A stretch of 15,446 nucleotides of DNA, taken from the IMG/VR virus record IMGVR_UViG_3300000478_000009, positions 1 to 15,446 of that record; one strand, written 5' to 3'. This stretch comes from a virus. A program made the translations under genes and the position numbers. Position 1 is the first letter of the stretch; every line of letters begins with the position of its first letter. The notes beneath the pieces were generated by a model that saw only the letters and a program-made list of their open reading frames with translations, searched no databases and was not told the DNA's origin. Shown here in pieces: positions 1 through 15,446 of this stretch.

Positions 1-1005
1 TGAATATCATGGTCGCCAATTTCAACGTTTAGGACTTCGACGTCATAGACTCTCATTCCATTTTCGTTGAAAACCATTCCTGGACGTGGAGAACCATCTT
101 CTGATTTCTTACCAAGAATGATGTTACGAACATGATCTTCGCTTGCCGACCAGAAATCTTCTACTCTAATCTTGCGAAGAGAGGCTTTCACCACACTTCG
201 TACGTGATCGCAGAGAAGTTTTACATAGTTGGATACGCTAAACCACTTCGTGGGATCGTCTCCTTCAAAGTTGACTCTTAGAGCAACCTTTAGTTGCACC
301 TTGACATGATCAGCAGTTTCGGCCGTGATAATGTCGGTTACTTTGTTGTGCTCAACCTGGAGATAAGCAGTCTTGAACAACTTATCTGTGGTCTTTGGAC
401 GCCAGTGCTTAGAGCAAGAGTTTCCAAAGTTTCATTGAATCCAAGTAGAACACGCTGTGGTCCTCTTTCTACACGGCGATTACCGGCAGTATCAACTACC
501 ATAACAGCATAACCTGTCCACGGGTTGATTTTTGGAACGCGGCAAATTTGTCATTTCCAAGCGTGACGGTTCGAGGTTCGGAATAAGTTGCGGCACGAGT
601 AAACTCGTCACCACCCATTTCTGCTCCGGACTGATAAGCCGAAAAACTTGCATCGGCAAATACAGCTTCCTCTAGGCGCATGCTGTTAGCAGCAAGGCCC
701 TTCTTTTTCATCGTAGTTGCTAGATCACCCTCAGAAACCATGCCCCGACGAGTAGTCGGAGAACGTTGCTGGATAGCTCTAAGAGTACGGTTGTACTCCA
801 TCGCCTCAGCATTTCCAGGATACATTGCCTCAGATTCGGCATCAGTTAGAACACGACGAACAAACACCTCTTTTCGAGGATCGGGTAGGCACATTGTGCC
901 ATCCTTGCCGCCATGAACCATTCGAATTGCTCCGGTATGACGGTCGAGAACATATCGTCCATCACCAGCCGGAATAGCCGTTGCAAAATGCTTTGTTTTC
1001 CGTCA
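1..1005 (-). pseudogene. Downstream continuation of the major-vault-protein (MVP) homolog, readable only by switching frames at least three times. Segment 1003->499 is the listed 496..921 ORF. Segment 552->381 is in a second frame. Segment 431->1 is in the original frame and runs off the window.
   Basis: Manual translation of the minus strand gives three stretches that each match MVP. 'TAIPAGDGRYVLDRHTGAIRMVHGG' corresponds to MVP '[27 protein letters not shown]'. 'RVPKINPWTGYAVMVVDTAGNRRVERGPQRVLLGF' corresponds to MVP '[30 protein letters not shown]'. 'RPKTTDKLFKTAYLQVEHNKVTDIITAETADHVKVQLKVALRVNFEGDDP...VEVLNVEIGDHDI' corresponds to the MVP shoulder '[52 protein letters not shown]...VVSSVDVQSVEPVD'. 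The three stretches are in three different frames. The MVP comparison is from memory, not a database search. Confidence 0.5.
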
Positions 1006-2051
1006 TAGCGAATGGCAGAATGCTGTTCGCATGGGAAATAAATTGGCGTAGTTTCGCCAGTAATGAAAAGCTCGTCGCCTTCCTTGTAGGTTTTACCCTT
1101 TGGACCATGATCACCACTGGTATCAGTGTACTCGGCAATAACCTTGATATGAAGGCCCTGAATAGAACCATTCAATTCGATTGGTCGGAAAATGCGCTCG
1201 CCATCATTGTTTGTGTAAAACGTTTCGGTTGGAAGTGGGAAAACCACGTCTGGTCCACGAACATAACGCTTGTTTCCGTTTTCGTCGATAAGAATGCAGT
1301 ATTGGAGACGCTCTAGGGTAAGAGCTTCACGAACATACTTGCCTCTCTCGTCAGCTACAACTTCGATACCGGTCGGAGGAATGTAGAAGCTAACTTCCGT
1401 TCCTCTAATAACCAATAGTCGGCCTACGGAAAGATCCTCAGGGATGCTTTCGGTTGCAACCAAAACTTCTGCTTCGGTTTCATCAGGTGAACCGGAGGAT
1501 TTTTTGGTTGTAGCATCGGCCGATGCTTTCTTCATAACTGCATCGGTCCAGTTTTCCTTTGCTGCTTGCTCGTCGTACACACGTACGATAAGATACTGGT
1601 TACTGCGAAGCTGATGGCCTTCAATAACCTTGACATGCTGTCGAGGCCAAAGAGCAAAGCTTACAGGGCCAGGAATATGTACACGCTGACCAATCAGAAG
1701 CTCCACATCAACAGACTTGGTGCCTGCTTCTGGAAATTTTCCATCCTTGGTCGGGTTGTACATTACTGCATAGTGACCAGTTGGCACCACAGTATTAACC
1801 TGTGCTGCTTCACTAAGAGGCACTGCCTCAAAGCGACCAGACTGGATATTGTAGACAACTGGTTCATCCTGCGCTTGTGCGTTAACAACAGTAGGACCGC
1901 AACGAACACAGGTTACACCATTGGTTGTATCACGAGTATACACGAATTCACCACGTGGCAATACTAACTCATTGGTCGTACGCCTGCTGGCTCTACGCCG
2001 TGGTATGCCTCGTTCGTCGAGTTCATCGACATAATCAAGTTCATCAGCCAT
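846..2051 (-). CDS. Major vault protein (MVP) homolog, N-terminal MVP-repeat region. This is an intact 401-aa ORF whose native reading appears to continue beyond its stop in other frames.
   Basis: ATG at 2051 with GGAG 9 nt upstream. 'VNTVVPTGHYAVMYNPTKDG' matches MVP '[24 protein letters not shown]'. 'FYIPPTGIEVVADERGKYVREALTLERLQYCILIDENGNKRYVRGPDVVF' matches the MVP repeat '[49 protein letters not shown]'. 'GDELFITGETTPIYFP' matches 'GDHWLIRGPLEYVPS'. The last ~45 codons before the stop at 846 do not match, because the real frame switches near 996-1003. Confidence 0.7.
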   Translation of the reverse strand: MADELDYVDELDERGIPRRRASRRTTNELVLPRGEFVYTRDTTNGVTCVRCGPTVVNAQAQDEPVVYNIQSGRFEAVPLSEAAQVNTVVPTGHYAVMYNPTKDGKFPEAGTKSVDVELLIGQRVHIPGPVSFALWPRQHVKVIEGHQLRSNQYLIVRVYDEQAAKENWTDAVMKKASADATTKKSSGSPDETEAEVLVATESIPEDLSVGRLLVIRGTEVSFYIPPTGIEVVADERGKYVREALTLERLQYCILIDENGNKRYVRGPDVVFPLPTETFYTNNDGERIFRPIELNGSIQGLHIKVIAEYTDTSGDHGPKGKTYKEGDELFITGETTPIYFPCEQHSAIRYDGKQSILQRLFRLVMDDMFSTVIPEQFEWFMAARMAQCAYPILEKRCLFVVF

Positions 2052-2064
2052 TTTGTTTCTCCGT

Positions 2065-2118
2065 TTTGTAAGATCCGGAGCTAGCTTGACCTTTGTAAGA
2101 TCCGGAGCTAGCTTGACC
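2065..2118. promoter_or_regulatory. Perfect tandem direct repeat, 2 x 27 bp (TTTGTAAGATCCGGAGCTAGCTTGACC), 14 nt upstream of the MVP-like start codon. Each unit carries the palindromes TCCGGA and AGCTAGCT, a GATC site and a TTGACC -35-like hexamer. Candidate operator/promoter.
   Basis: Units at 2065-2091 and 2092-2118 are identical base for base. The palindromes are read directly from the sequence. On the plus strand TTGACC(2086-2091)-17 nt-TAGCTT(2109-2114) resembles a sigma70 promoter, but it points away from the MVP gene. Confidence 0.6.
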
Positions 2119-2149
2119 GACGTGGATTACTTCATAAACCGGGATATGA

Positions 2150-2185
2150 ATCTTAGAATAAGAAAGAATTCGGGTGGTCGAATTT
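2150..2185 (-). terminator. Weak hairpin (AATTCG/CGAATT, loop GGTGGT) followed by a T-rich tract on the minus strand. It lies between the 99-aa gene and the MVP-like gene.
   Basis: Inverted repeat at 2167-2172 / 2179-2184. The minus-strand downstream sequence is TTCTTTCTTATTCT. The stem is short and AT-rich, so this is weak. Confidence 0.25.
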
Positions 2186-2191
2186 GATAAA

Positions 2192-2491
2192 TTAAACAGT
2201 GGCTTTTGCTTTTAGGGCTACCTGTTCTAGCCAAGCAAGCAGATTATCATCAACTAAATCTACTTCCCTTTTAAGCTCTTCAATCATGGCTTCATCGGCT
2301 TCTTCGGAAGGCTCGAAATACTTGTGTAGATCAGACCAAGCTTTTGTTGCTTCTTGCATGGCCTGTATAAACTCTTTGAGAATATCTTTTCCTTCACCAC
2401 CAAGATTGCGTTGTAAAACATCGCCTGTATCAATTTGTTCTTGAATGGCTTCTCGAATTAGCTGTCTGAGTTGTGACCTGGTGATTTTCAT
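2192..2491 (-). CDS. Hypothetical acidic 99-aa protein.
   Basis: ATG start. It overlaps the upstream gene by 1 nt (TAATG coupling). No recognisable motif. Confidence 0.5.
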   Translation of the reverse strand: MKITRSQLRQLIREAIQEQIDTGDVLQRNLGGEGKDILKEFIQAMQEATKAWSDLHKYFEPSEEADEAMIEELKREVDLVDDNLLAWLEQVALKAKATV

Positions 2492-2745
2492 TATTGCGTC
2501 CGTTTCTCTTCGAAAAGATATTCTAACAAATATCCTAGTTTCTGTTCTTCGAGATTTTCTCTTGATTTCTTACTTTGCTTTTCTTTCGGCAAAAGCTTTT
2601 CAATGCGGAAATTTAGCAAAGGTTTGCCATTGATGGTTGGTTGTCCAAGTTCGTTGACTCCAATAGACTTCACTTTAATTCGTTTATTCTTAAATTTACC
2701 GCCTAAAAGGATATCACCAACTTCTATGTCTAGTTCTATGGACAT
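2491..2745 (-). CDS. Hypothetical basic 84-aa protein.
   Basis: ATG at 2745. It is translationally coupled to the 99-aa gene. The lysine-rich middle (GGKFKNKRIKVKSIGVNELGQPTINGKPL) suggests a small nucleic-acid-binding protein, but this is speculative. Confidence 0.5.
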   Translation of the reverse strand: MSIELDIEVGDILLGGKFKNKRIKVKSIGVNELGQPTINGKPLLNFRIEKLLPKEKQSKKSRENLEEQKLGYLLEYLFEEKRTQ

Positions 2746-2761
2746 TGAACTTAAATAGCAA

Positions 2762-2784
2762 AAGCCCGATGGAAAATCGGGCTT
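2762..2784 (-). terminator. 9-bp stem-loop (AAGCCCGAT-GGAAA-ATCGGGCTT) between the HNH gene and the 84-aa gene. Putative terminator or attenuator.
   Basis: Perfect inverted repeat 2762-2770 / 2776-2784 with a 5-nt loop. Both strands have U-rich flanks (GCUUUGGGUUUG on plus, UUGCUAUUU on minus). It sits only ~17 nt upstream of the 84-aa start, so attenuation or RNA processing is as likely as full termination. Confidence 0.45.
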
Positions 2785-2877
2785 GCTTTGGGTTTGTAAA
2801 GCAGAAACTTATCTTAAGTTGGGTTTTAGGAACATTGTACTACAATCATTGCAATACTGCGTTATCAAACCTGGATA

Positions 2878-3723
2878 TTAGAAGTTGAGATTTGGATGCT
2901 CTTTTTTATGACATTCAGAACACAATACCAGACCCGACACGTTATTTTTAATATGATAATCAGCTACCTGTTCTGCTATGTGAATTTTTAGATTGAACAT
3001 TTTATCATTATTGGGATGAATGGATTTTGAAATAAAATATTCCCAATTATTTTCTTCTGCTACTGTTTTCAAGATGGTTGAAAAATTTTCTTTGTCATGG
3101 TGTACGTGCAAATTTTTTGGCGACTTACATTTTTTACATTTAAATTGCGCAGCTGCTAACAAGGGGTATTTCCATTCCTTGTAAAGTTTGGTGTTTGAAT
3201 AGGAAACCTCATAAAGAGATGAAATTCCGCCTTTCCATTGTGAATGTTCTGGTCCGTAGAGTGTTGGCACGGTTCCATTCAAGCGACCTTTCTTCATACG
3301 TTCAGCCCGAACTTTGAGTTCTTCAGAGTTGGAAGAGATTGTTTCAGAACCTTTTACTCCGTATTGAGCTACAGAAGAGTGGTCTTCTTTAGTTAAGCCC
3401 TTGTTCCAGATTCTTAATTCACCTTCCTTCCACATTCTGTTTCGTGTCTTTTGACTTTTTTCTTGAGCTTTTTTATTGTTGCCCCAATTGTTTTTACCGG
3501 ATACACAGGCGGCGTGCCCTCGAACAAATTCTCGAAATCCACGTGACATGTCAAGATACTTTACTTCGCCACCGCAACCACACCCACACGTGGGTTCAAT
3601 GCCATTGCGGTATAAAAGTGTATAAAGCTTCTTCGATGTTCCTTTGTGCAATTTACGAAAATGCACAGACAAAGAAATTAGTTTGGAATATTGTTTATCA
3701 CAAATGGGACAGTTAAAAGACAT
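2878..3723 (-). CDS. HNH homing-endonuclease-like protein with an N-terminal C2H2 zinc finger. The likely true start is the ATG at 3723; the ORF track starts at an in-frame TTG at 3759.
   Basis: N-terminus 'MSFNCPICDKQY...HFRKLH' is a C2H2 finger. A CGCGCGG cysteine cluster follows. C-terminus 'CKKCKS...HVHHD...N...CSECHKKEH' is the HNH motif with flanking CxxC pairs. The gene is AT-rich relative to the structural genes. GGAG lies 10 nt upstream of ATG 3723. Confidence 0.8.
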   Translation of the reverse strand: MSFNCPICDKQYSKLISLSVHFRKLHKGTSKKLYTLLYRNGIEPTCGCGCGGEVKYLDMSRGFREFVRGHAACVSGKNNWGNNKKAQEKSQKTRNRMWKEGELRIWNKGLTKEDHSSVAQYGVKGSETISSNSEELKVRAERMKKGRLNGTVPTLYGPEHSQWKGGISSLYEVSYSNTKLYKEWKYPLLAAAQFKCKKCKSPKNLHVHHDKENFSTILKTVAEENNWEYFISKSIHPNNDKMFNLKIHIAEQVADYHIKNNVSGLVLCSECHKKEHPNLNF

Positions 3724-3757
3724 GAGCCATACTCCATTGTTAGTTTGAGTATGGCTC
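3724..3757 (-). promoter_or_regulatory. 11-bp perfect stem-loop (GAGCCATACTC ... GAGTATGGCTC, 12-nt loop) whose 3' arm ends exactly at the HNH start codon. The GGAG Shine-Dalgarno sits in the stem.
   Basis: Inverted repeat 3724-3734 / 3747-3757. The SD GGAG is the complement of CTCC at 3733-3736. Phage homing endonucleases such as I-TevI are classically controlled by this kind of RBS-sequestering hairpin. Confidence 0.6.
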
Positions 3758-3853
3758 AAATGCTGTTAGTTGTATAGGTTACTGTATGTTTTGATATTGC
3801 TTGTTGCTTCCCCATATACTCGTAAGCCCTTGAAAACACAGGGGAAAAATAAC

Positions 3854-4345
3854 TCAAAATTGTAAAACTGCGTTGTCGAAGCGGATGGTCAGCGAAATTT
3901 CTGCAAGGTCAGCAGTTGAGTCGTAAGAAACGTCATTGAAGTTAGCTTCTGTAATAAATGCGCCCTTGATATCCCATAGCTGAACTACGGTACCAACTGG
4001 GTCAAGCATTTTGAGCTGAATGTCACGCTTGTAGAAATCTGCGTAACCACCACGGCCGGAAACTGATTCGAAGCAGAGTCGGATCCATTCCATTACCTGT
4101 TGTGCGCCTGCTGGTGCGATTGGATCGTGAAGAGTAACCGAAATCGTACCAAAGGTTGTCTTACCTGCGAGGTAACGAGTGTGGTTAATCCAATTGACCG
4201 TAACTTCTTCTGTGGTGTAAGTTGGTCTTGCTGCGGTCTTCACAATGAAAGAGTCAATGCCTTCAATAGCAAGTAAGAATCTACGCTTTGCAAGCGGTTC
4301 AAACTTGGTAGGTAGCATATCGGTTACTGAAAGAGTTTCTGCCAT
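3854..4345 (-). CDS. Tail tube protein, T4 gp19-like.
   Basis: ATG start with GGAGA 8 nt upstream. 'RRFLLAIEG...FIVKTAARPTYTTEEVTVNWINHTRYLAGKTTFGTISVTLHDP...AQQVMEWI...LWDIKGAFITEANFNDVSYDS...ISLTIRFDNAVLQF' runs parallel to T4 gp19 'PNLFQVEIS...FQCKATALPAGIVEKIPVGFMNRKINVAGDRTFDDWTVTVMND...ARQKFVDWQ...IKGLWPTNVGELQLDWDSNNEIQTFEVTLALDYWE'. The T4 sequence is from memory. Confidence 0.7.
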   Translation of the reverse strand: MAETLSVTDMLPTKFEPLAKRRFLLAIEGIDSFIVKTAARPTYTTEEVTVNWINHTRYLAGKTTFGTISVTLHDPIAPAGAQQVMEWIRLCFESVSGRGGYADFYKRDIQLKMLDPVGTVVQLWDIKGAFITEANFNDVSYDSTADLAEISLTIRFDNAVLQF

Positions 4346-4398
4346 GGTTTATTCTCCGAACTGTTCCTTTTCTTAAATAGTGGTTTCAACAGTTTTTA

Positions 4399-4890
4399 GT
4401 GGATGCTCAAATCCTTGTAGATGTAAATAGTCATGTTTTAGATTTTCTACTTACTTACACTATCGTTCTTCTTGTTTTGATGAATTTAGTCATTTTCAGG
4501 TTACATCAAACAAACATAACTATCATCATGAGTTTTTATTGCAATGGTTCTGTTGGTGGTATGCCAATAAAATTGAAAATTCTAAGCACGTCGGAAGAAC
4601 GTACAAAAGGTTTCCAATTCCAAAAAAACCCACCCATGTTAGGAGAAGGGTTGCTGTTTCTCTTTGACGAACAAGAACCGCAAACATTTCATATGAGAAA
4701 TGTCGGCTTCGATATTGACTTACTTGGATTTGACTCTGTTGGTCGAATGGTTTGTAAACTGCCGATGAAAGCACAAGCAGAAAAACTCTATAAGACGCCA
4801 CCGGTCAAGTTTGTCATTGAGGCACCGAGAGGTTGGGCAAAATGTTTAGAGCCAGGAGAATGCGTTCTGAGGGTAAGAAGAATATCTTGA
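4399..4890 (+). CDS. DUF192 (COG1430)-like small protein with an N-terminal hydrophobic anchor. The start is uncertain: GTG at 4399 as in the track, or ATG at 4480, 4528 or 4561.
   Basis: Core 'ERTKGFQFQKNPPMLGEGLLFLFDEQEPQTFHMRNVGFDIDLLGFD..GRMVCKLPM........YVIEAPRGWAKCLEPGECV' fits the DUF192 pattern (GLM.R...GMLF.F....FWMKNT..PLDI.F.D..G.V.....M.P......VLE...GW.....GD.V). 'LLTYTIVLLVLMNLVIF' is TM-like. No good SD before any candidate start. AT-rich. Confidence 0.5.
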   Translation: MDAQILVDVNSHVLDFLLTYTIVLLVLMNLVIFRLHQTNITIIMSFYCNGSVGGMPIKLKILSTSEERTKGFQFQKNPPMLGEGLLFLFDEQEPQTFHMRNVGFDIDLLGFDSVGRMVCKLPMKAQAEKLYKTPPVKFVIEAPRGWAKCLEPGECVLRVRRIS

Positions 4891-4894
4891 GACC

Positions 4895-5512
4895 CTACTT
4901 TACTCTTTGTTGAAGCAAGTACACATAGGTCTCATGAGTGTTTGCCGATGCTGCTAGTTGATCATTTAGACCAAGAGTAAGAGCACCCATTTCCTCTAAT
5001 GATGCAAACATAGACTCAAGAAAGTCAAGATACGCCTTTTCAAGCCTAAGGCCAGATTCAGCAATTTCGTCAGCTGAAGCATCTACCATACAACCAGCTT
5101 CCTCCATAATTTTGACAGCATTTGAAGCAATCATCAATGGGCAAGCAAGATTTTCATCATTAGTAACACCAACGGCTTTCTCAATCGCACCGTCGATCTC
5201 ATCTTGAACTTCTGTATAGATGCGATCATAAAGTTCAGCATGATCACCAGAGAAGCCGGTACCTTTTGTTAGATGATGTGCTGCATGAAACCAAAGATGA
5301 ATGGCTCTAAGATAAGAAACATATCCTGCCAAAAAATTTTTGCAATCAGCAGAAATTTCTTTGGTTGAAAGTTTGTCAACTGGTTCGGTGTTAAATTGAA
5401 TAGGAGCAAGTTCAGGTTCAACAGAAACAATTGGTGCATGCATGTCTGCGACCATGTCTACCTGTTCTTTTAGAATTCCTGCCAGTTGTTGCCATCTTTG
5501 TTTGGTACTCAT
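4895..5512 (-). CDS. Dps/ferritin-like four-helix-bundle protein with a ~70-aa N-terminal extension.
   Basis: ATG start with GGAAG 5 nt upstream. 'LRAIHLWFHAAHHLTKGTGFSGDHAELYDRIYTEVQDEIDGAIEKAVGV' parallels E. coli Dps '[47 protein letters not shown]'. The Dps sequence is from memory. Confidence 0.5.
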   Translation of the reverse strand: MSTKQRWQQLAGILKEQVDMVADMHAPIVSVEPELAPIQFNTEPVDKLSTKEISADCKNFLAGYVSYLRAIHLWFHAAHHLTKGTGFSGDHAELYDRIYTEVQDEIDGAIEKAVGVTNDENLACPLMIASNAVKIMEEAGCMVDASADEIAESGLRLEKAYLDFLESMFASLEEMGALTLGLNDQLAASANTHETYVYLLQQRVK

Positions 5513-5534
5513 TGTTCTTCCAATGTTCCAATAT

Positions 5535-6455
5535 TTACTCAGATAAGTAGTTCAATAAAACTTCAATAGGCATTCTTGATTCGACCATCCGATCTTCATC
5601 TGATTTCTTTTCTTGTTCAACCAACTCCATGACCTGTTCAACAATGTTGCTAAAGGCAAGCTCGCCCAATCTAGAACCACCAATCTCTATATATTGCAGC
5701 TTGTCAACCAGACGTTCCTTATCAATCTTTGCCAGACGTTTAAAATAATCAAGGTAACTCTGTTCTCTTCCTTCACGTTCTTCGAATTTGGCAAGAGCTT
5801 TGACAAAATCTTTTAGCTTTAGATTCGGATCTGACATGTCAATGCCAGCATCAAAAAAGTATTCATACTCAGGCTTTGAACCGCCACGATAAACAGCATT
5901 GTAATATGGTTTGGACTGTAGATACTCCTCACGGGAATATTCCTGCCATTGTTCTTTCCCTGGTGGTTGAATCCAAACACGGGTAATTTGAGAAGGTTTT
6001 ACCAATCCCATCAATAATGCTTGAGGCTCAGCCCCGCTGGAAAGAAGCGTGTAAGACATCCAGGGTCTAAAGGAATTTGGAAACTTTTCTTTGACCCAAT
6101 CAAGAGCGGTTTGACCTTTCTCTCTCGTTATGTCTCGTCCAGTAACACCACTCCAATCAGTACCGTGGAGAAATTTTGCGTATGTTTTTATTTCTATAAC
6201 TGCTCCACTACCAAATTGCCTAGCAGTTTCAAAATCTGGAGCAACGAAAACGCCTCTGTGTTCACTACCACCATATACACGTCGATAAACTTGGCGTGCA
6301 TCAAAACCATTAATCATTCTGGCTAATTCAAGCGGTGTTGTTCCATGATAAACTGTAATAACGTCTGTTGGTTTAGCATTGGCAATTTCTTCTCGTTTTT
6401 CGGGGTCAATTGCCTCAAGAAGAAGAAATAGATTGTTTTTTTTAGCTAATTTCAT
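5535..6455 (-). CDS. ADP-ribosyltransferase-fold protein of the H-G-T-motif clade (KptA/Tpt1 RNA 2'-phosphotransferase or PARP-like NAD-binding lobe), plus a ~200-aa C-terminal region of unknown function. The track starts at TTG 6479; ATG at 6455 is preferred.
   Basis: 'ITVYHGTTPLELARMINGFDARQVYRRVYGGSEHRGVFVAPDFETARQFGSGAVIEIKT' parallels E. coli KptA '[53 protein letters not shown]' (from memory). The N-terminal Arg-rich RNA-binding half of KptA is absent. Confidence 0.5.
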   Translation of the reverse strand: MKLAKKNNLFLLLEAIDPEKREEIANAKPTDVITVYHGTTPLELARMINGFDARQVYRRVYGGSEHRGVFVAPDFETARQFGSGAVIEIKTYAKFLHGTDWSGVTGRDITREKGQTALDWVKEKFPNSFRPWMSYTLLSSGAEPQALLMGLVKPSQITRVWIQPPGKEQWQEYSREEYLQSKPYYNAVYRGGSKPEYEYFFDAGIDMSDPNLKLKDFVKALAKFEEREGREQSYLDYFKRLAKIDKERLVDKLQYIEIGGSRLGELAFSNIVEQVMELVEQEKKSDEDRMVESRMPIEVLLNYLSE

Positions 6456-6722
6456 GGTTCTAACAGCAGCATCTTTCAAGAATAATTAGGATAGTAAGGC
6501 AAGTAACGAATAAAAATACCCTTAAAGAAGCAACTTAGTTTATTTAGTCTTGTGATTAATGATTTCATTTTTATGTTTTTATGGTCAATTGTCGAAACTT
6601 ATGAAGGAAAACCTATTTATTCAAGCCAATACTTGGCACCGTGTAATCAAAGGACCCAATGCGAAACTACCATTGGTTGTCAAAATCTTCAAATATCTAA
6701 AGAAGAACGGATAATTACAAAC

Positions 6723-7574
6723 ATGGCAAACTTAGAACAACTTTTGGAATGGCTTCTCAATGAACAAGAGGACCAAAAATATGATATCGATTACGTTTTA
6801 CATGAGCCAAAGCGTAAAAAAATTCCTCACGAGAAGCTAAATCTCTACAAAAATGAGGGAGCACATAACATTCTAGCTGCGCTCAAAAAGGCTTCAAAAG
6901 AAGAGATAGATTATTGGAGCAATTGGTATCAACATGCTCATGGCCACGTTAGAGAACTTGCCGAACAATACGATATTCCTGTTGAAATAGCAGCAGCAGT
7001 TGCCGCAGTTCTAAGTCCAAATCTTGGATGGAATGCAAGCCTAATGGCCGCTAAAAGAGTTCTGGATAACTGGATGCATCTCGGCGGTGCCGAAGGATAC
7101 CAATTCTGGCCAAATATTCCTGCATACAAAACCAATGTAAACAAGGCAATGAAGATTCTTGAAACTGGGAATCTTGATTTGGTTAAAGGTCCAAAAGTTA
7201 CCGTATTCTATCACTCTCTTTTAAACCCAGACAGAGTTGAACGTGAACTTGTATTGGATGGTCATGCTATTAACGTCTGGAGAGGAATCAAAACTCCACT
7301 CAAAAATCTTAGACAACCAACCAAAGAAGAACGCAAAGCCATCATTCAAGATTATAGAAAAGTGGCAGATCTTGTTGGTTTAACTCCACAACAACTTCAA
7401 GCTGTAACTTGGTTTATCTGGAAGGCTGTAACATCACCACCTGAAGTTCATGGTCAGGTAGAAGTAGAGCAGCCAGCAGTAAAAGAAGCTCGACGACGGC
7501 TTATGCCAATGATCAAAGAGGTTGTTTCAGAACAATTGAGACGTCGAAAAATGCTCAATTCCTTTTCACTCTAA
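6723..7574 (+). CDS. Hypothetical protein, 283 aa from ATG 6723 (the track extends to GTG 6552). The only plus-strand gene inside the accessory block, convergent with the GNAT-ParB gene. It contains a 'LVLDGHAINVWRG' segment weakly reminiscent of a ParB/Srx motif.
   Basis: Long open frame with protein-like composition. The 20-nt 3' overlap with the convergent gene is acceptable. No confident family assignment. Confidence 0.5.
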   Translation: MANLEQLLEWLLNEQEDQKYDIDYVLHEPKRKKIPHEKLNLYKNEGAHNILAALKKASKEEIDYWSNWYQHAHGHVRELAEQYDIPVEIAAAVAAVLSPNLGWNASLMAAKRVLDNWMHLGGAEGYQFWPNIPAYKTNVNKAMKILETGNLDLVKGPKVTVFYHSLLNPDRVERELVLDGHAINVWRGIKTPLKNLRQPTKEERKAIIQDYRKVADLVGLTPQQLQAVTWFIWKAVTSPPEVHGQVEVEQPAVKEARRRLMPMIKEVVSEQLRRRKMLNSFSL

Positions 7575-8691
7575 TAGGAATGCCGGTTTGATGAGCCGCC
7601 CAAGCTCTATTGTGCCCGTCGGTCACATAGGCGTATTCCATTCCAAGATCATCATCTGAAAGTGGACGAGACCAGTCCAATTCGTGCTCATATCCGCCTT
7701 CTTCTGCTTCTTTGTATTGTTCAAGGTCTTGTTCATCCACAATGTGGATACCACCACGAATAGGTGGCATTCGACCCCAACCATTTTTCTTCATATAAGC
7801 AGAGAATTTAGGTATTTTTTCTTCAAAGTCTGTAGAAGCATTTACACCTGAACCACGAAAAAGTTCTGATTGAACCTCGTCCCAAGTTTTCTTTCCTTCA
7901 TTGAAAAGACCTGCCAGCCGCTTGAAACGTCTGTTTGAAAAAACCCCTTCTTCTATTGGTTTTGCATCTTTGTATCTCAATTCCCACACGTGGAGTGGAA
8001 TACCTTTATAATTGGCATAAGTAACCCTACCTCTACCGTCACCAATAGTAGAGAAAGTTTCTCCTGTCACAACAATAACCGGAGGAGGGTTGTCGCCCCA
8101 CTCCTTTGTCATTTGAGCCCAATGTTTTCCTCGAAATGCTTCGAGTTCATTGTCATCCTCTATGTCTTCCATCCATGAACTAAGATCATCATAATAGCCA
8201 AGTTCATCAACTGTAAGCTTACCAAGATATCTCAAATCGAAATCATCGTAGGATGAATCTTCGTCAACTTCTTCAAATGACATCGCAGTGTGATCAATGG
8301 CATCTGAAATATCATTGTAAGATGGCTGAGGAATGGTATTGACCGTTTCCAAACTTTCTTTAAGATGTCCAGGAGGTCGGTACATCAATTCCATAAAGTC
8401 ATAATTTTTGTAACGGCCTTTGTTTAACACAAAACCCAAACTCTTATAAAAGTTTGTTAGTTTGTTTTTGTTATAACCCCATTCTGAACTTGGAGTCAGG
8501 GTTACTATTTTTTGGACTTTGTCAGCATATTCATTGATGGCTTTAAAAATTTCTCTACCAATGCCACGACCACGAAATTTCGGGTTGACAACTATCAATG
8601 CTACAGAAATGTAATTTGGGTGTTCATAAACAACCCATTTGTCCAAATATGGCAAATATTTTTGTTTAATTTCTTTTATAGACATTGTCAT
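7555..8691 (-). CDS. Fusion protein: N-terminal GNAT acetyltransferase, then an acidic linker, then two ParB/Sulfiredoxin-like segments.
   Basis: GNAT motif A is 'LIVVNPKFRGRGIGREIFKAI' and motif B is 'FYKSLGFV'. The ParB/Srx-like signatures are 'PPVIVVTGETFSTIGDGRGRVTYANYKGIPLHV' and C-terminal 'YVTDGHNRAWAAHQTGIPIRV'. The ATG overlaps the upstream HAD gene stop as ATGA. Confidence 0.6.
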   Translation of the reverse strand: MTMSIKEIKQKYLPYLDKWVVYEHPNYISVALIVVNPKFRGRGIGREIFKAINEYADKVQKIVTLTPSSEWGYNKNKLTNFYKSLGFVLNKGRYKNYDFMELMYRPPGHLKESLETVNTIPQPSYNDISDAIDHTAMSFEEVDEDSSYDDFDLRYLGKLTVDELGYYDDLSSWMEDIEDDNELEAFRGKHWAQMTKEWGDNPPPVIVVTGETFSTIGDGRGRVTYANYKGIPLHVWELRYKDAKPIEEGVFSNRRFKRLAGLFNEGKKTWDEVQSELFRGSGVNASTDFEEKIPKFSAYMKKNGWGRMPPIRGGIHIVDEQDLEQYKEAEEGGYEHELDWSRPLSDDDLGMEYAYVTDGHNRAWAAHQTGIPIRVKRN

Positions 8692-9209
8692 TGACTGTTG
8701 TTAATTAGCAAATTAATAATCTTTTCTTTATGTTCTTTAGTAAGTCCATCCTTATCAAACGACGTTTGAACCCAATATTTTGACAATGGTCTTGCTTTAT
8801 AATACGTCCTAGACCAACCCAGGTCTTGGTCGTCCAAAATTACATATCTATCAACGCCAATATTATATTTTAACCATTCAACAACTTCTTCGGCACGTTC
8901 TGTTGGTTCATATTCGGTTCCATTGTTACTGGTTCGCCAAAGCAATACTGGAGTTGAAGAATAAATCGGATATTTCAATCCTGCTCTGGCTAAAACAACA
9001 CTCATTCGTGGGTCTACACGGGTACTGGAAGACAAAACAATTTTACACCCCGTTCTGGTCACTATGTCATTAATCATGGCAACCCTAACAGGGTCTAGGT
9101 GTTTTACCAGCTCATCTATCGTTGCCGTAAAGCTTGGTTTTGGAGCGTTTGTTTTAATCCATTCCAAATCGTTTAGAACGCCGTCTACGTCAAGAAACAA
9201 TACTTTCAT
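8688..9209 (-). CDS. HAD-superfamily phosphatase (DxDGxL motif). It resembles the small HAD phosphatases found in RNA-repair-type gene neighbourhoods.
   Basis: N-terminal 'KVLFLDVDGVLND' is the HAD motif I. A later 'VILDDQD' is an HAD motif-IV-like acidic cluster. ATG start. Confidence 0.65.
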   Translation of the reverse strand: MKVLFLDVDGVLNDLEWIKTNAPKPSFTATIDELVKHLDPVRVAMINDIVTRTGCKIVLSSSTRVDPRMSVVLARAGLKYPIYSSTPVLLWRTSNNGTEYEPTERAEEVVEWLKYNIGVDRYVILDDQDLGWSRTYYKARPLSKYWVQTSFDKDGLTKEHKEKIINLLINNSQ

Positions 9210-9251
9210 GTGTCCATGTTGAGCTAAAAACTTTAGCGTTTAAACGACGAA

Positions 9252-9272
9252 AGCCTCGTCTTAGACGAGGCT
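9252..9272 (-). terminator. 9-bp GC-rich stem-loop (AGCCTCGTC-TTA-GACGAGGCT) between the 82-aa gene and the HAD gene.
   Basis: Perfect inverted repeat. On the minus strand it is followed by UUUCGUCGUUU. Candidate intrinsic terminator or RNA-stability hairpin. Confidence 0.45.
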
Positions 9273-9297
9273 CTCAAATCTTTCTAGTAAGACTAGG

Positions 9298-9546
9298 TTA
9301 TGATTTTATTAACCAATCTTCATGTATTATCTCTACAGAGTTTCCTAAAATTAGGAAGAGCCATTTTCCTTCGTCAGGAAAAGGAAAATTTTGTAAATTT
9401 TGCCACCCACTAGCATCAAACCAATATTGTGGAATTGATACACTTTTTTTGCTTAATAAGAATCGATCAACAACAAGACAAAATTGAGGTCTGTCAGAAG
9501 GAAATTTTCGTTTCACGAGACTGCCTATTGCAAATGGTTTACGCAT
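9298..9546 (-). CDS. Hypothetical 82-aa protein.
   Basis: ATG start overlapping the GIY-YIG stop by 8 nt. No recognisable motif. Confidence 0.4.
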   Translation of the reverse strand: MRKPFAIGSLVKRKFPSDRPQFCLVVDRFLLSKKSVSIPQYWFDASGWQNLQNFPFPDEGKWLFLILGNSVEIIHEDWLIKS

Positions 9547-10414
9547 TTACCCACCCTGAGGCGCTCTTGCATTTACCTTTCACCATTTTGGTGAAGCTAG
9601 AATAAGAGATGCCTCGCTGTCTACAATCTTCTTTAGCATTTTCACTTATTATAAACTGTTCGCCAGTTATCTTGTGTTTTAAGATAATACCAGCATACTT
9701 GGCACCGGCTATCTTAGCTCTATGTTCCTCAGTCAACGGTCTTCTCTTTTCACCTTTGCGCTCAATGTATGTTGGAGGTTTCGTACCTAAAAACCAACCA
9801 CTAGATGATTTAATTTTTCTTTTGAGCATCAGGTGGAAGGATTTGTAAGAGAGATTGCGGGCCTCACACCAGGCTCTAACAGATCCTTCTATTGTGGTCG
9901 TCTCGCCCGTTTTTTTATTGGATACTGTCACATTAGCAGAATGGGCATTCCAACGTTTATGAGCATAATCTTTTGCCTTTTCTCTTAAGGAAGGATCTGA
10001 ATAAATCTTTGTCATTATTTTACTCATTTTTTCTTTTCTATCTTCCTTCCATGGATGGTAACCAATATCAACAGCATACTTTGTTCCATTATAACACATG
10101 TTCCTATTATCAAATGCTTCATCTATATATTTTTGTTCTTCTGTTACACGAAGAAGTGACCACTCGTCTTTATCGCCCGATGTTGGGAGTTTTACGACTT
10201 TTACAACCTCATATTGGAAAGCATCTTTACCACATTTATTAAAATCTCTTTGTAAAAAGAGATTGTGGTGAGTTCCCTTTTTTAGGGCAGAAAGATGTTC
10301 TCTTGAACGTTGTTTAAATCTAGCGGCAGAGCCATAATACACTCTGCCGTTTTTTTTATTTAAAATTCTATACACGCCACCGTCATTTGCGTGACCTTTG
10401 AAAATGTTTTCCAT
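9539..10414 (-). CDS. GIY-YIG homing endonuclease (Seg / I-TevI-like), free-standing, with a basic C-terminal DNA-binding region.
   Basis: 'GVYRILNKKNGRVYYGSAARFKQRSREHLSALKKGTHHNLFLQRDFNKCG...FQYEVV' carries the GIY...YIG, Arg, Glu and Asn signature. The lysine-rich C-terminus has repeated 'SSSGWFLG' / 'SASGWVNA' modules. AT-rich. AGAGG lies immediately before the ATG. Confidence 0.8.
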   Translation of the reverse strand: MENIFKGHANDGGVYRILNKKNGRVYYGSAARFKQRSREHLSALKKGTHHNLFLQRDFNKCGKDAFQYEVVKVVKLPTSGDKDEWSLLRVTEEQKYIDEAFDNRNMCYNGTKYAVDIGYHPWKEDRKEKMSKIMTKIYSDPSLREKAKDYAHKRWNAHSANVTVSNKKTGETTTIEGSVRAWCEARNLSYKSFHLMLKRKIKSSSGWFLGTKPPTYIERKGEKRRPLTEEHRAKIAGAKYAGIILKHKITGEQFIISENAKEDCRQRGISYSSFTKMVKGKCKSASGWVNA

Positions 10415-10585
10415 ATGACCTCTATATTTGCTACTGTTAGTAGTTTAGATACTTGAAGGTCATATGTCTAACGGATATCAAACACAATATTTTTTGCACA
10501 TAGAATAAAAACAAAACGAAAAAGGCCACCTTTTTCGAAGGTGGCCTTAGTCAAACTATTCATAACCTATTATTTAGGTCATATG
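10412..10585. repeat. Three copies of the 10-mer AGGTCATATG within 175 bp. One is inverted at 10412-10421, covering the GIY-YIG SD and start codon. Two are direct, at 10457-10466 and 10576-10585, and the last overlaps the MCP stop codon.
   Basis: Exact matches read from the sequence. The two direct copies are 119 bp apart and bracket the MCP terminator hairpin. Confidence 0.5.
10504..10548 (-). terminator. Rho-independent terminator downstream of the major capsid gene.
   Basis: On the minus strand, stem AAGGCCACC / GGTGGCCTT (9 bp, GC-rich) with loop TTCGAAAAA is followed by UUUUUCGUUUUGUUUUU. Confidence 0.8.
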
Positions 10586-12501
10586 ATACCCATGTCAAGA
10601 ATGGTTACGGTTGCGTAGAAGTCATTTCTGACCATCTTCTTACCGTAACGGGTCATGACACCCTTACGTGGAGTAAAGTCTTCCTGAGCGTAGATAACTG
10701 GAGTAAGGATAAGTGGCACGTATGGTGCGTAGATGAATCCTGACTCAAGGAAGGTGTTACCCTTCAATCCGACAAGAACCTTGTTGCTTGGGAAGTATGG
10801 ATCCTTGTAAACAGTGTATCTGTTGTTCAAGGTACCGACTGCCTCTGCTCCGATTACCATGTTGTCACGAACCTGACCGTCAGCATCTACTCTGTAGGAA
10901 GGCTTGTAGGCAACAAGGTGCTCAAGGATGGTGCAGACATCTGGGGAGGTAACAATGAAGTTACCGGAACCACGGAGTGTCTTACGGTGAATGGTGTTTG
11001 CTGCGTCCGTAATCGTCTCAAGAAGGGTCTGGTACCACTCTTGAATGTTTACGAAGGCCATTGGACCTGGGGAAAGCGTGCTGCTCTGAAGAGCCTCTTG
11101 TCCGGTGAACTTGTTGACAAGCTTACCTGGAGCACGAGACCAGTAGAGGTTAGCTGCGCCTGCCTGCGTAAGAAGGTCGTTCAAGATTTCACGGTCAATG
11201 TCAAGCGTGATCATCTCAGAGAGAATGTTCGTAAGCTCAACTTCTACGTCGATTGAGTAGAATGCCGTAAGGTCTTGAGCCATTTCTGGCGACCAACGAG
11301 CCCTAAGCTTACGGGTCTGAGCCGTTACGCTGGTGGACTCAATGCGGATGTCAACTTCTGGGATTCGTGGGCTGGAATCGACTGCAAAGTCAGATTCGAA
11401 GCTTGGAATCGTAAGAGTAGAACCATCAGCATTTACGCTAAGTGCGTCTGCGATTGCTGCGGAAGCGGTAACTGCGTTACCTACTGTACCATCAGGATCT
11501 GGTGGGGTACCTGCGTTTGCAAGACGAACAACGTGTAGAACGTGGGAGCCATTAAGCGGATCTGGTGTGAAGATACCGGTTGTAGCATTCCAGTTACCAC
11601 GCTGGTTCATCTGACGAAGGTTGAGCACGCCACGACCACCCTGGTACTTCTCGCCCCACTCAACAGCAGAGTTGGTTGCTGCACCGAAACCGGTGAGTGC
11701 AATCTGGTTGAGGTTGTTGAGGTCAGCACCTGTGATCTTGCCCGTGAACTCGGATGCGCTTACGAATACGAATGCGTAGTCAAGCACGCCGTCGGTAAGA
11801 TCGTTCTCAACACGGGTGTCGTACATGACGAAACGTGCGTTGAGACCTAGGAAGTCATCAGCGGTTGCTACGGAGCCACCTGGGGTCCAAATAGAACCTG
11901 ATGCCCAATAACCGACTGAGTCGGTTGAACCAGAAAGGAAACGGCTCTGCTTGTGAACCTTTGAGTAGCCGTGACCTACAAGGTCATACTGACCACCGGT
12001 TGCAAGAGAACCGGAACGGATGCCAACACCACGTGGGTTGTTGTATACCGAATCCTGGCTGGTGTAAGTTGATGGATTCACAACGCTCGTTGTTGCGAAC
12101 TGGTTAGCTGCGGTTCCAGCGTCACCACCAACCGAGCTGCCGTAGGTGTAATCGAGGTAGAAAAGAAGACCGGTTGGAAGGCTCATTGGCTGAACCGATA
12201 CGATCTCATTTGAAATCAAACCTGCGAAAACACGGCGAACGATTGGGAATGCAACGTTTGTGAAACCTGCAATCTTACCGCTTGAGGTCAAAGAAGCACC
12301 ACCGAGGGAAAGTGCGTTGGTTTCCTTGAGAAGCTCAGCTGCCTGGTTCTCAAGAAGACGTGCCATTCCGTCACGGTTCATGCCTTTGAGGCCCTCAAGA
12401 AGACCAGTTGCTCCCCACTTCTTTACAAGTCGTGGTGAGTCTGCACCAAGAGAGCGACGGTGTACGCCTTCTGCTAGTTGCTCTAAAGTAAAAGTCTTCA
12501 T
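10579..12501 (-). CDS. Major capsid protein, T4 gp23-like, 640 aa with an enlarged insertion domain.
   Basis: 'LVKKWGATGLLEGL' matches T4 'LLNKWKPLLEGEGL'. 'FPIVRRVFAGLISNEIVSVQPMSLPTGLLFYLDYTYG' matches T4 'AVMGMVRRAIPNLIAFDICGVQPMNSPTGQVFALRAVYG'. 'TRKLRARWSPEMAQDL' matches T4 'KSRQLKAAYSIELAQDL'. C-terminal 'GFIYAPYVPL...TRYG' matches T4 'GIYYAPYVALTPL...KTRYG'. ATG start with GGAG 8 nt upstream. 'LLKE|TNALSLGGAS' is a candidate propeptide cleavage site at the position equivalent to T4 'FLTE|AEIGGDHG'. Confidence 0.9.
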   Translation of the reverse strand: MKTFTLEQLAEGVHRRSLGADSPRLVKKWGATGLLEGLKGMNRDGMARLLENQAAELLKETNALSLGGASLTSSGKIAGFTNVAFPIVRRVFAGLISNEIVSVQPMSLPTGLLFYLDYTYGSSVGGDAGTAANQFATTSVVNPSTYTSQDSVYNNPRGVGIRSGSLATGGQYDLVGHGYSKVHKQSRFLSGSTDSVGYWASGSIWTPGGSVATADDFLGLNARFVMYDTRVENDLTDGVLDYAFVFVSASEFTGKITGADLNNLNQIALTGFGAATNSAVEWGEKYQGGRGVLNLRQMNQRGNWNATTGIFTPDPLNGSHVLHVVRLANAGTPPDPDGTVGNAVTASAAIADALSVNADGSTLTIPSFESDFAVDSSPRIPEVDIRIESTSVTAQTRKLRARWSPEMAQDLTAFYSIDVEVELTNILSEMITLDIDREILNDLLTQAGAANLYWSRAPGKLVNKFTGQEALQSSTLSPGPMAFVNIQEWYQTLLETITDAANTIHRKTLRGSGNFIVTSPDVCTILEHLVAYKPSYRVDADGQVRDNMVIGAEAVGTLNNRYTVYKDPYFPSNKVLVGLKGNTFLESGFIYAPYVPLILTPVIYAQEDFTPRKGVMTRYGKKMVRNDFYATVTILDMGII

Positions 12502-12556
12502 GGTATTCTCCTCGAATCTCCTGTTTCTAAGTATGTGTTAGAATATCTATTTTCCG

Positions 12557-13336
12557 TTAGTCAACCTTTTTGATCCCGGCAAGTACCTGCCAGCGATTTG
12601 GAGATTGTCCATTGGATTCATGACCTGTCTGTGGCTGAGCGGCCTCAGTGAGGTTTGCGCTCCCTGGTTTGGTCACCTTTGAGGAAGAACCACCCAATTT
12701 GCGGGAAGCTGATGCATGCTCGTCGAGCCTGCGCTTAATCTTTGTGTAAATAGCCTTTGTTTCGGCTACGCTTGTACCCTTGTCAAGGTGCTCAACAATT
12801 TGTTGTAGAGCTTTCTTGGTAAGAGCCTTTTCAGAGAGTGCTCTCTGAAGGAACTTGCTGTAATAAACTGCCTTTGAAGTAAAGAGGTTGGTCTCGGCAA
12901 GCTGCTTATTCAAACCGGCCACCTGCTTTTCTTTTGCTTCAAGCAATTTCATTGCCTTGCTGAGCTTCTTCTCAAGAAGCTTGTTCTTGCGAGCAAGGTG
13001 ACTGAGCTTACGGGATTCCATCTTCATTCCTGCCTCTTCTAGATCCATGTCTACGTCCATGCCTTCTCCAAGGTCTTCTTCATCGGCAAGAAGAACATCT
13101 TCTTCGCCAGACTCTGCATCGGCCATGTCCATATCAAGGTCCATATCCATTTCTTCGTCTTCGCCTTCGTCGTCAACAATTTCGACTTCTTCGTCATCGT
13201 CGCCACCGACATTGAGGGCTACATCGACATCAAGGTCGTCGATGCCAAGAGCAGCAAGCTCTTCTTCAACCTCAGGTGGAAGATCGACGGAAAGAACCAA
13301 GTCTGCGTCGTCTTCAACTTCAAGATCTTCCATCAT
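12557..13336 (-). CDS. Prohead scaffolding protein, T4 gp22-like.
   Basis: Position immediately upstream of the MCP. The N-terminal third is hyper-acidic (MDMDLDMDMADAESGEEDV...) and is followed by a K/E/L-rich coiled-coil-like region. L/I-x-E motifs (LAE, LTE, IVE) typical of gp21 cleavage sites are present. The ATG overlaps the upstream gene's stop as ATGA. Confidence 0.7.
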   Translation of the reverse strand: MMEDLEVEDDADLVLSVDLPPEVEEELAALGIDDLDVDVALNVGGDDDEEVEIVDDEGEDEEMDMDLDMDMADAESGEEDVLLADEEDLGEGMDVDMDLEEAGMKMESRKLSHLARKNKLLEKKLSKAMKLLEAKEKQVAGLNKQLAETNLFTSKAVYYSKFLQRALSEKALTKKALQQIVEHLDKGTSVAETKAIYTKIKRRLDEHASASRKLGGSSSKVTKPGSANLTEAAQPQTGHESNGQSPNRWQVLAGIKKVD

Positions 13337-14844: not shown

Positions 14845-14872
14845 CCTATTTCCTCAGTGGGGGAAGATGGTG

Positions 14873-15364
14873 TTATCTTGGAGTTGAACTTCCGAGTGTG
14901 AGAGAGCCAATGGTTTGACGACCAATGTTTTCTCTTGTGTCGGATGGAGATGCTAGTCCGTCACCATCAAATGCACCACCACCTCCACGTGCAGCTTGCG
15001 TTACTTCTACACCAGCTGCTGGAATATCAGCTGGGTTCTGTCCTTCTGCGGGAACAGCAATGTTTGGAGCATAAGGCGATCCAGGCAGACCACCACCACC
15101 AAGAACTACTTCTTCAAGATTTGGCGAATCGCCATAATCTCGGTTGTAGCTGGTTGGTAGATCCCAATAAGCAATTGCCGCAACATCCGCACCCAATTCA
15201 CCACCAATAAGAAGAGTATTTCCCTGCTCAGTAACGATCTCGTCGTTGATTTCGTTTCTGTAAATGGGTGAACCTGGGTGAGCGGTCTGTAATGACTCAG
15301 TGTCAGAAGAACCGTTTCCTCGTGTTCTGGCTGGTACGTTAATCTTGAATTGTTCGAATGGCAT
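14873..15364 (-). CDS. Hypothetical Gly/Pro-rich 163-aa protein at the 5' end of the head-assembly operon.
   Basis: ATG start with AAGGA SD. Low-complexity GGGG/PxxP-rich composition. Its place in the operon suggests an internal or core protein, but this is an inference. Confidence 0.45.
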   Translation of the reverse strand: MPFEQFKINVPARTRGNGSSDTESLQTAHPGSPIYRNEINDEIVTEQGNTLLIGGELGADVAAIAYWDLPTSYNRDYGDSPNLEEVVLGGGGLPGSPYAPNIAVPAEGQNPADIPAAGVEVTQAARGGGGAFDGDGLASPSDTRENIGRQTIGSLTLGSSTPR

Positions 15365-15446
15365 TGCTTATTCCTTTTGCTATCTGCTTACTAAATATTA
15401 CGCAACAAAAAGTTTTACTTCTTCTCGTATTTTCCAAACGCTAAAG

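Follow-up and report, generated by a model that had tools for sequence, protein, structure and literature searches.

The window considered here, a stretch of 15,446 nucleotides (nt) forming positions 1 to 15,446 of the IMG/VR virus record IMGVR_UViG_3300000478_000009, evidently belongs to a huge phage, one related contig (SRR11476471_1340, here L025) having a length of 507,812 bp. On its minus strand, an 84-amino-acid (aa) gene (2745 to 2491), a 99-aa gene (2491 to 2192), a gap of 140 nt and, from 2051, a gene for a vault-protein-like product, the MVP-like gene, follow one another. The gap contains an exact tandem repeat of a 27-nt unit beside the ribosome-binding site (RBS) of the MVP-like gene. 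We find this element to be a recent, strain-specific, derived tandem duplication of a 27-nt segment that is normally single-copy, lying in a leader for which an unusually stable fold is predicted. The features at its core, in the order of the mRNA, are these:

2192 to 2491, minus strand: the conserved 99-aa gene, directly upstream of the leader, without a family assignment
2092 to 2118, minus strand: the 5' copy of the repeat unit in mRNA sense (GGTCAAGCTAGCTCCGGATCTTACAAA), whose first 5 nt are the end of the 5' arm of helix P1 (described below), with AGCUAGCU at 2106-2113 and the anti-Shine-Dalgarno (anti-SD) element CUCCG at 2103-2107
2065 to 2091, minus strand: the 3' copy of the unit, beside the RBS, with the second AGCUAGCU at 2079-2086 and the second anti-SD CUCCG at 2076-2080
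2059 to 2062, minus strand: the Shine-Dalgarno (SD) sequence GGAG of the MVP-like gene; CGGAG at 2059-2063 is the 3' arm of helix P2
846 to 2051, minus strand: the 5' part of the MVP-like gene, a 401-aa open reading frame (ORF); relatives have an intact ORF of 899-902 aa with the Pfam domains MVP_shoulder and Vault_3

An intact relative of 899 aa matches MVP_shoulder at 1.5e-26 and Vault_3 at 1.3e-07. In the window, three 1-nt deletions (at 995, 539 and 401) interrupt the MVP-like gene (496-2051). The first, which shortens a run of A5 to A4, is common to the window and to the contig from SRR5011273; those at 539 and 401 coincide exactly with sites that vary among strains, and resemble consensus errors of the kind a mixture of strains would give.

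The repeat unit, TTTGTAAGATCCGGAGCTAGCTTGACC on the plus strand, occurs twice head-to-tail (2065-2091 and 2092-2118) with no mismatch. Tandem Repeats Finder records it with a period of 27, 2.0 copies and 100% matches, a search of 200 dinucleotide-preserving shuffles brought up no match, the flanks do not lengthen the match, and the junction between the copies is unique. Read in the sense of the gene, the 3' end of the gap runs ...CGTC, then GGTCAAGCTAGCTCCGGATCTTACAAA twice, then ACGGAGAAACAAA and then the ATG. A preliminary description of this DNA had correctly recognized the exact 2x27 repeat, which three assemblies share without a mismatch. It had placed the repeat 14 nt from the start codon and the RBS, whereas 13 nt (2052-2064) separate it from the ATG and the SD lies within those 13 nt. 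It had also listed TCCGGA, the 8-bp palindrome AGCTAGCT, a GATC site and a TTGACC hexamer in each unit; all four are present, with the amendment that TTGACC is on the strand antisense to the MVP-like gene. Simple arithmetic gives any 27-mer a chance of about 8% of holding an 8-bp palindrome and of about one in three of holding a 6-bp one, so that the nested palindromes are not significant by themselves. Nor is the repeat coding: the frame that enters the MVP ATG has an upstream stop and no upstream start codon, and the MVP-like ORF therefore starts at the first ATG open to it.

The tail-tube, 84-aa and 99-aa proteins were used to find further contigs of the same phage species, the longest being that of 507,812 bp, and the gap between the 99-aa and MVP-like genes was compared across 27 loci from 21 assemblies, which resolve into eight haplotypes (hap). 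In six of these, representing 18 samples, the gap is 113-114 nt long and contains one unit, a segment equal to one of the two units being absent from these 18 related assemblies. Two units, with a gap of 140 nt, were found only in the window and SRR5011273 (both hap2) and in SRR926290 (hap7). The latter two are Logan contigs of 19.8 kb and 4.1 kb, respectively, from different runs, which also encode the 99-aa protein of the window and carry a 2x27 repeat identical to its own; SRR926290 is set apart by one single-nucleotide polymorphism (SNP) in the gap, and SRR5011273 differs from the window by 18 SNPs elsewhere. The repeat is present in three independent assemblies and is not an artefact.

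Five of the single-copy haplotypes have a 28-nt variant of the unit, GGTCAAGCTAGCTCCGGAATCCTACAAA. The remaining one, hap6 (L040 and L041, from SRR8581213 and SRR12997672), contains the exact 27-mer of the window once, followed by ACGGAGAAACAAAATG and set in the same ACAAAATG context as in the window, and is a progenitor-type allele. As the segment is single-copy in 18 samples, including the identical 27-mer of hap6, the two-copy state is derived. The three carriers are indistinguishable across 1,350 nt of flanking sequence, made up of the 99-aa gene and the initial 1,050 nt of the MVP gene, as against 6-27 differences from the window at 300 sites of the 99-aa gene and 20-47 at 1,050 sites of the MVP gene in the other strains. 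The duplication is also the sole indel of at least 4 nt in the 2.5-7 kb that align between the window and each relative. The preliminary description had read the identity of the copies as a sign of either a very recent duplication or strong selection. Single-copy alleles in 18 of the 21 assemblies, the same 27-mer in hap6 and the identity of the carriers over 1,350 nt bear out the first; the second is superfluous, because in so shallow a clade the two copies are expected to be identical, with no need to invoke selection or gene conversion.

In its history, then, the repeat is an ordinary small tandem duplication. It resembles the small tandem duplications in intergenic DNA, produced by slippage or template-switching, that act as cis-regulatory mutations: the copies are exact and head-to-tail, the single-copy progenitor is still segregating, and the duplicated allele is confined to a shallow clade. 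It differs from them in that the junction, where CAAA meets GGTC, has no microhomology, and in that the unit includes a self-complementary octamer, such that RNA pairing, and not spacing, is the predicted mode of action of the new copy.

Beyond the species, neither the repeat nor an alignable leader was found in the three nearest relatives (L021, L022 and L023, with 72%, 68% and 56% protein identity, respectively). L021 (SRR31712303, 7318-9443), the closest relative that is not conspecific, keeps the order of an 85-aa gene, a 104-aa gene, a gap and the MVP gene, its MVP-like ORF having only 480 aa. More distant MVP homologues, at 15 loci in IMG/VR, at 47 in JGI metagenomes and in two GenBank records of huge phages, reach at most 53% identity, and the upstream regions inspected among them (those of the IMG/VR and GenBank loci) are unrelated and unusable for a comparison of leaders. 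Exact searches with the unit or its 20-nt core gave no match in IMG/VR, JGI metagenomes or GTDB genomes, and a blastn search of window positions 1-6500 against the INPHARED phages likewise gave none.

Within the species, polymorphism affects 13 of the 114 sites of the gap, compared with 46 of 209 fourfold-degenerate sites of the genes on either side (Fisher p = 0.023), and the gap thus appears to be under modest constraint. We folded the single-copy leader together with the first ten MVP codons, a segment of 95-96 nt, and obtained one long irregular hairpin with a minimum free energy of -29.4 to -32.4 kcal/mol and z-scores of -4.4 to -6.0; none of 200 shuffles was as stable. RNAalifold, applied to the six single-copy haplotypes, independently gives the same three helices. 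P0, of 14 bp, is predicted to pair UUUAYGAUGUAAUC with GAUUAUGUCG.AUGAA in MVP codons 6-10; P1, of 9 bp, would pair CRUCGGUCA with UGGCUGAUG and thereby cover the UG of the start codon; and P2, of 5 bp, would pair the anti-SD CUCCG with YGGAG, which holds the SD. In the window the arms of the two outer helices lie as follows:

2125 to 2138, minus strand: 5' arm of P0, UUUAUGAAGUAAUC, in which a U-to-A change in the lineage of the window (TATGAT to TATGAA) breaks one pair
2114 to 2122, minus strand: 5' arm of P1, CGUCGGUCA, the partner of the start-codon region
2042 to 2050, minus strand: 3' arm of P1, UGGCUGAUG, which takes in the UG of the start codon (ATG at 2049-2051)
2022 to 2036, minus strand: 3' arm of P0, GAUUAUGUCG-A-UGAA, inside MVP codons 6-10

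All 168 pair cells of the alignment are standard pairs, and of the 28 pairs, 25 are invariant and three show one-sided compatible changes (U.G/C-G, G.U/A-U and G-C/G.U). The predicted ensemble leaves the SD unpaired with a probability of just 0.00-0.01 in every single-copy strain. Among 28 distinct gene-start windows drawn from the window and L025, the MVP start is the most structured; the hairpins at the next-ranked starts (those of the 173-aa, 101-aa, 84-aa and 291-aa genes) lie upstream and read as terminator-type, an enclosed RBS being seen only in the MVP leader. It is the full-length fold alone that singles out the MVP gene, as simple RBS accessibility over -14 to -5 does not set it apart. 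The folded leader is, in sum, a strong thermodynamic prediction. The duplicated unit corresponds to the inner 5' half of this predicted fold, taking in the last 5 nt of the 5' arm of P1, the P2 strand with the anti-SD and the greater part of the loop of P2.

One locus, L039, is missing the MVP gene and the leader together, which suggests that the leader belongs to the MVP gene and not to the 99-aa gene. In that locus (SRR26389815, 330-620) the 99-aa gene is kept and divergence sets in directly behind TTTATCAAATT, within the 5' arm of a weak hairpin just past the 99-aa stop, no MVP gene or leader being present at this position. As a separate observation, the first MVP codons show a 9-nt periodicity at 2012-2045 (GTTCATCGA, 3.8 copies, 68% matches) that encodes the acidic stretch DELDYVDELDE, and part of it is the 3' arm of P0. 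A box in L021, ACGTCGG, that could pair with its own start region was considered as a counterpart of the leader and rejected: two gaps of about 110 nt can be expected to share a 7-mer by chance, and the z-score of the L021 fold is only -1.1. An Rfam scan returned a sole, chance-level match away from the leader (mir-981 at 2807-2885, E 0.4, 15.8 bits against a gathering score of 51).

With two copies the predicted picture changes. In the leader of the window P1 is kept, P2 is reduced to 4 bp, and a new 13-bp hairpin is predicted between the units, joining their two self-complementary AGCUAGCU octamers (GCUAGCU:AGCUAGC) and GAUCUU with AAGGUC. The predicted probability that the SD is unpaired rises to 0.28-0.29 from 0.00 with one copy. 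The cost of opening -16 to +13 is computed as 10.1 kcal/mol for two units, 14.4 kcal/mol for one unit (by in silico deletion) and 12.4 kcal/mol for three. Under standard thermodynamic models of initiation, a change of about 4 kcal/mol would correspond to a severalfold higher initiation rate. We can accordingly envisage that the single-copy hairpin locks up the RBS and would limit translation of the MVP-like gene, and that, once the unit is duplicated, the copies would pair with each other in competition with the sequestration of the SD and loosen this limit severalfold. The duplication may equally be nearly neutral.

The transcriptional setting of the leader is suggested by a module that recurs in this species, namely a GC-rich hairpin (AAGCCCGA...TCGGGCTT or AAGCCCGGC...GCCGGGCTT) that usually stands right before the motif CTATTTAAG, this motif being confined to the sense strand of intergenic DNA, at a distance of 4 to about 40 nt from the start codon that follows. 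In relatives the module is also found after the MVP stop codon (AAGCCCGGCttttGCCGGGCTTagCTATTTAAG). The occurrences, and a second hairpin in the gap itself, are:

2750 to 2784, minus strand: GC-rich terminator-like hairpin at 2762-2784, then CTATTTAAG at 2750-2758, upstream of the 84-aa gene
4372 to 4380, minus strand: CTATTTAAG alone, before the tail-tube gene
L025 5966, 6547, 10648 and 10742, and L026 9950-9986, sense strand: CTATTTAAG in relatives
2156 to 2184, minus strand: weak hairpin AAUUCG-ACCACC-CGAAUU at 2167-2184 with a T-rich tail at 2156-2166; 6 bp, of which 2 are G-C

The module looks like a boundary between terminator and promoter, with CTATTTAAG as a candidate phage-specific promoter, and 2750-2784 is likely the end of the upstream transcription unit together with the promoter of a block formed by the 84-aa, 99-aa and MVP genes. 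The module is absent from the gap between the 99-aa and MVP genes. The 84-aa gene (or the cassette that replaces it), the 99-aa gene and the MVP gene would hence form one transcription unit in which MVP is tuned at translation. This departs from the preliminary description, which saw the MVP-like gene as its own regulated transcription unit: the boundary modules flank the whole block. It had also described a weak terminator-like hairpin at 2150-2185; a hairpin with a T-rich tail does stand at 2167-2184, though it has only 6 bp and went unflagged in the terminator scan, and our consensus scan flagged no terminator in this gap in the window or in single-copy L026. The stem of the weak hairpin is kept in seven of the eight haplotypes, with 4 of the 13 polymorphic gap sites in or beside its 6-nt loop, which suggests a functional element, as a partial terminator or a processing site.

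Taking these results together, we regard as the best explanation, and a reasonably probable one, a recent lineage-specific duplication of a 27-nt leader segment of the MVP-like gene of a huge phage, in which the single-copy leader would be RBS-locking. Leader hairpins that sequester the RBS are known in phages, for instance in the early transcript of T4 gene e (lysozyme) and in the long-range pairing of the MS2-type RNA phages. The leader described here is predicted to share with these an upstream strand complementary to the SD and start codon, such that translation would need the 5' arm to be opened or removed. T4 gene e has a late promoter within its hairpin, from which an open transcript arises; the present leader differs in having no promoter motif, whether sigma-70-like or CTATTTAAG, inside the structure.

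Several points weigh against this explanation. None of the 28 pairs shows a compensatory change, the strains being too close and a shuffle control uninformative in this regard, and both P0 and P1 have 3' arms that lie within coding sequence, so that the conservation of these arms is not independent evidence. The leaders of L021, L022 and L023 are unrelated to the one described here and have no significant fold in common with it. The copy number in both Logan assemblies is to be read as at least 2: assuming that these were assembled with 31-mers, a true array of at least three units could appear as two. The difference of 4 kcal/mol comes from the thermodynamic model alone, and the transcription start, the co-transcription and the promoter role of CTATTTAAG are all read from the sequence. 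Finally, the carrier lineage also has the U-to-A change that weakens P0, and two of its three assemblies (the window and SRR5011273) share the A5-to-A4 frameshift at 995 in the MVP-like gene; these two changes also fit relaxed constraint and a neutral duplication.

An alternative, which we consider rather unlikely, sees the repeat as a neutral indel that arose by an error of replication or repair in the non-coding gap, hitch-hiked in one shallow clade and left expression unaffected, the predicted hairpin being irrelevant or the gene decaying in this lineage. In its favour stand the confinement of the duplication to a clade of at most 0.3% divergence, the P0-breaking substitution and the frameshift (in two of three carrier assemblies) within that lineage, and the lack of compensatory covariation. 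On the other hand, the gap is half as polymorphic as the fourfold sites, the duplicated segment falls within the most structured start region of the locus, the allele recurs in three separate assemblies, two different sequencing runs among them, and the frameshift, which lies in a homopolymer run and is absent from L002, may itself be an error. At the opposite pole lies the idea that the duplication is an adaptive cis-regulatory mutation, in which the copying of a self-complementary octamer would have created a built-in competitor hairpin (an 'anti-anti-SD') that partly unlocks a repressed vault-protein-like gene. This we hold to be doubtful; if true, a huge phage would provide a natural example of a riboregulator whose setting was altered by one tandem duplication.

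Very improbable, in contrast, is the view that a dimeric DNA-binding regulator, such as the 84-aa or 99-aa product, controls MVP transcription by binding the two units as tandem operators; the preliminary description had proposed tandem sites of this kind, with the 84-aa product among its candidates. The palindromes AGCTAGCT and TCCGGA in each unit and the presence of small genes of unknown function nearby do speak for it. However, neither the copy number nor the dyad is conserved: 18 of the 21 assemblies have a single copy, L021 (at 72% identity) has no repeat, AGCTAGCT becomes AGCTGGCT in hap5, and the GATC site occurs only in hap2, hap6 and hap7. Palindromes of such size are not rare by chance, and the centre-to-centre spacing of 27 bp amounts to 2.6 helical turns, so that the two sites are out of phase. 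Neither the window nor 415 kb of related loci holds the motif outside the repeat or its single-copy counterpart, or any further copy of the unit at up to three mismatches. As for the proposed regulator, most strains do without the 84-aa gene, a variable cassette, and L026 (ERR14788557) combines it with a single copy of the unit; neither the 84-aa nor the 99-aa protein has a match above threshold in Pfam or PHROGs, an informative match in PDB or any DNA-binding family. The repeat does resemble iterons and the lambda-type OR/OL operator arrays in having repeated units with short palindromes near a gene start, but it departs from them in its unconserved copy number and dyad, its out-of-phase spacing, and the lack of a cognate DNA-binding gene or of other copies in the sequence searched.

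The related proposal of duplicated promoter elements, with the duplication making or doubling a promoter either for the MVP-like gene or, as TTGACC-N17-TAGCTT on the plus strand, for an antisense transcript, is extremely improbable. The junction does yield TTGACC, a 17-nt spacer and TAGCTT on the plus strand; yet TAGCTT matches TATAAT at 3 of 6 positions and fails the scan, TTGACC itself is antisense to the gene, and the total of promoter-like sites is below the shuffle expectation. For the gene strand, the consensus scan found no sigma-70-like promoter at 2052-2191 of the window or in the L026 gap, the recurrent CTATTTAAG motif of the species is absent from the gap, and a start within the repeat would leave a leader of at most 13 nt. 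A TATGAT upstream of the unit was entertained as a '-10' element and discarded, because strains vary at this site (TACGAT, TATGAA), no good -35 accompanies it and it falls within an arm of P0. Lastly, that the repeat is an assembly artefact or has the wrong copy number is likewise extremely improbable: the window does contain probable consensus errors in the form of the 1-nt deletions at the strain-variable sites 539 and 401, but three assemblies agree exactly, two 27-nt units leave every 31-mer unique so that de Bruijn assembly should neither create nor collapse the array, and the single-copy alleles are on distinct haplotypes.

The repeat alone is, therefore, an ordinary strain polymorphism, and it provides no evidence for a dedicated regulator or promoter of the vault-like gene. 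Its study has as a by-product a testable picture of how that gene might be expressed, from a putative operon bounded by hairpin and CTATTTAAG modules and with its RBS predicted to be buried in an unusually stable long-range hairpin. The natural one-copy and two-copy alleles offer a ready pair with which to test whether the hairpin limits translation. Full-length MVP homologues, with 40-52% identity, are widespread among huge-phage contigs that measure 150-735 kb (LR756500/LR756501, of 462 and 735 kb, and the IMG/VR loci L006-L020). We know of no function for the phage MVP homologues, and information on the timing and level of their production would help in designing experiments on phage MVPs. 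Such proteins have already been reported in two gut phages (bioRxiv 10.1101/2023.11.10.566534); the gene downstream of our repeat is, in the intact form of its relatives, likewise a full-length MVP homologue, whereas that report is about the proteins, its abstract making no mention of leaders or regulation.

The genes upstream of the leader are variable in their own right. The 84-aa gene (2491 to 2745, minus strand) is present on four Logan contigs besides the window, with other genes in its place in most strains. It is part of a mosaic of cassettes between the tail-tube and 99-aa genes (2491-3853 in the window; compared in L024-L032 and L040), where it alternates with a 101-aa gene plus a 139-, 175- or 186-aa gene. 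An HNH-endonuclease-like gene (2878-3759) is present or absent according to strain, and the SNP patterns of the cassette region show recombination among strains.

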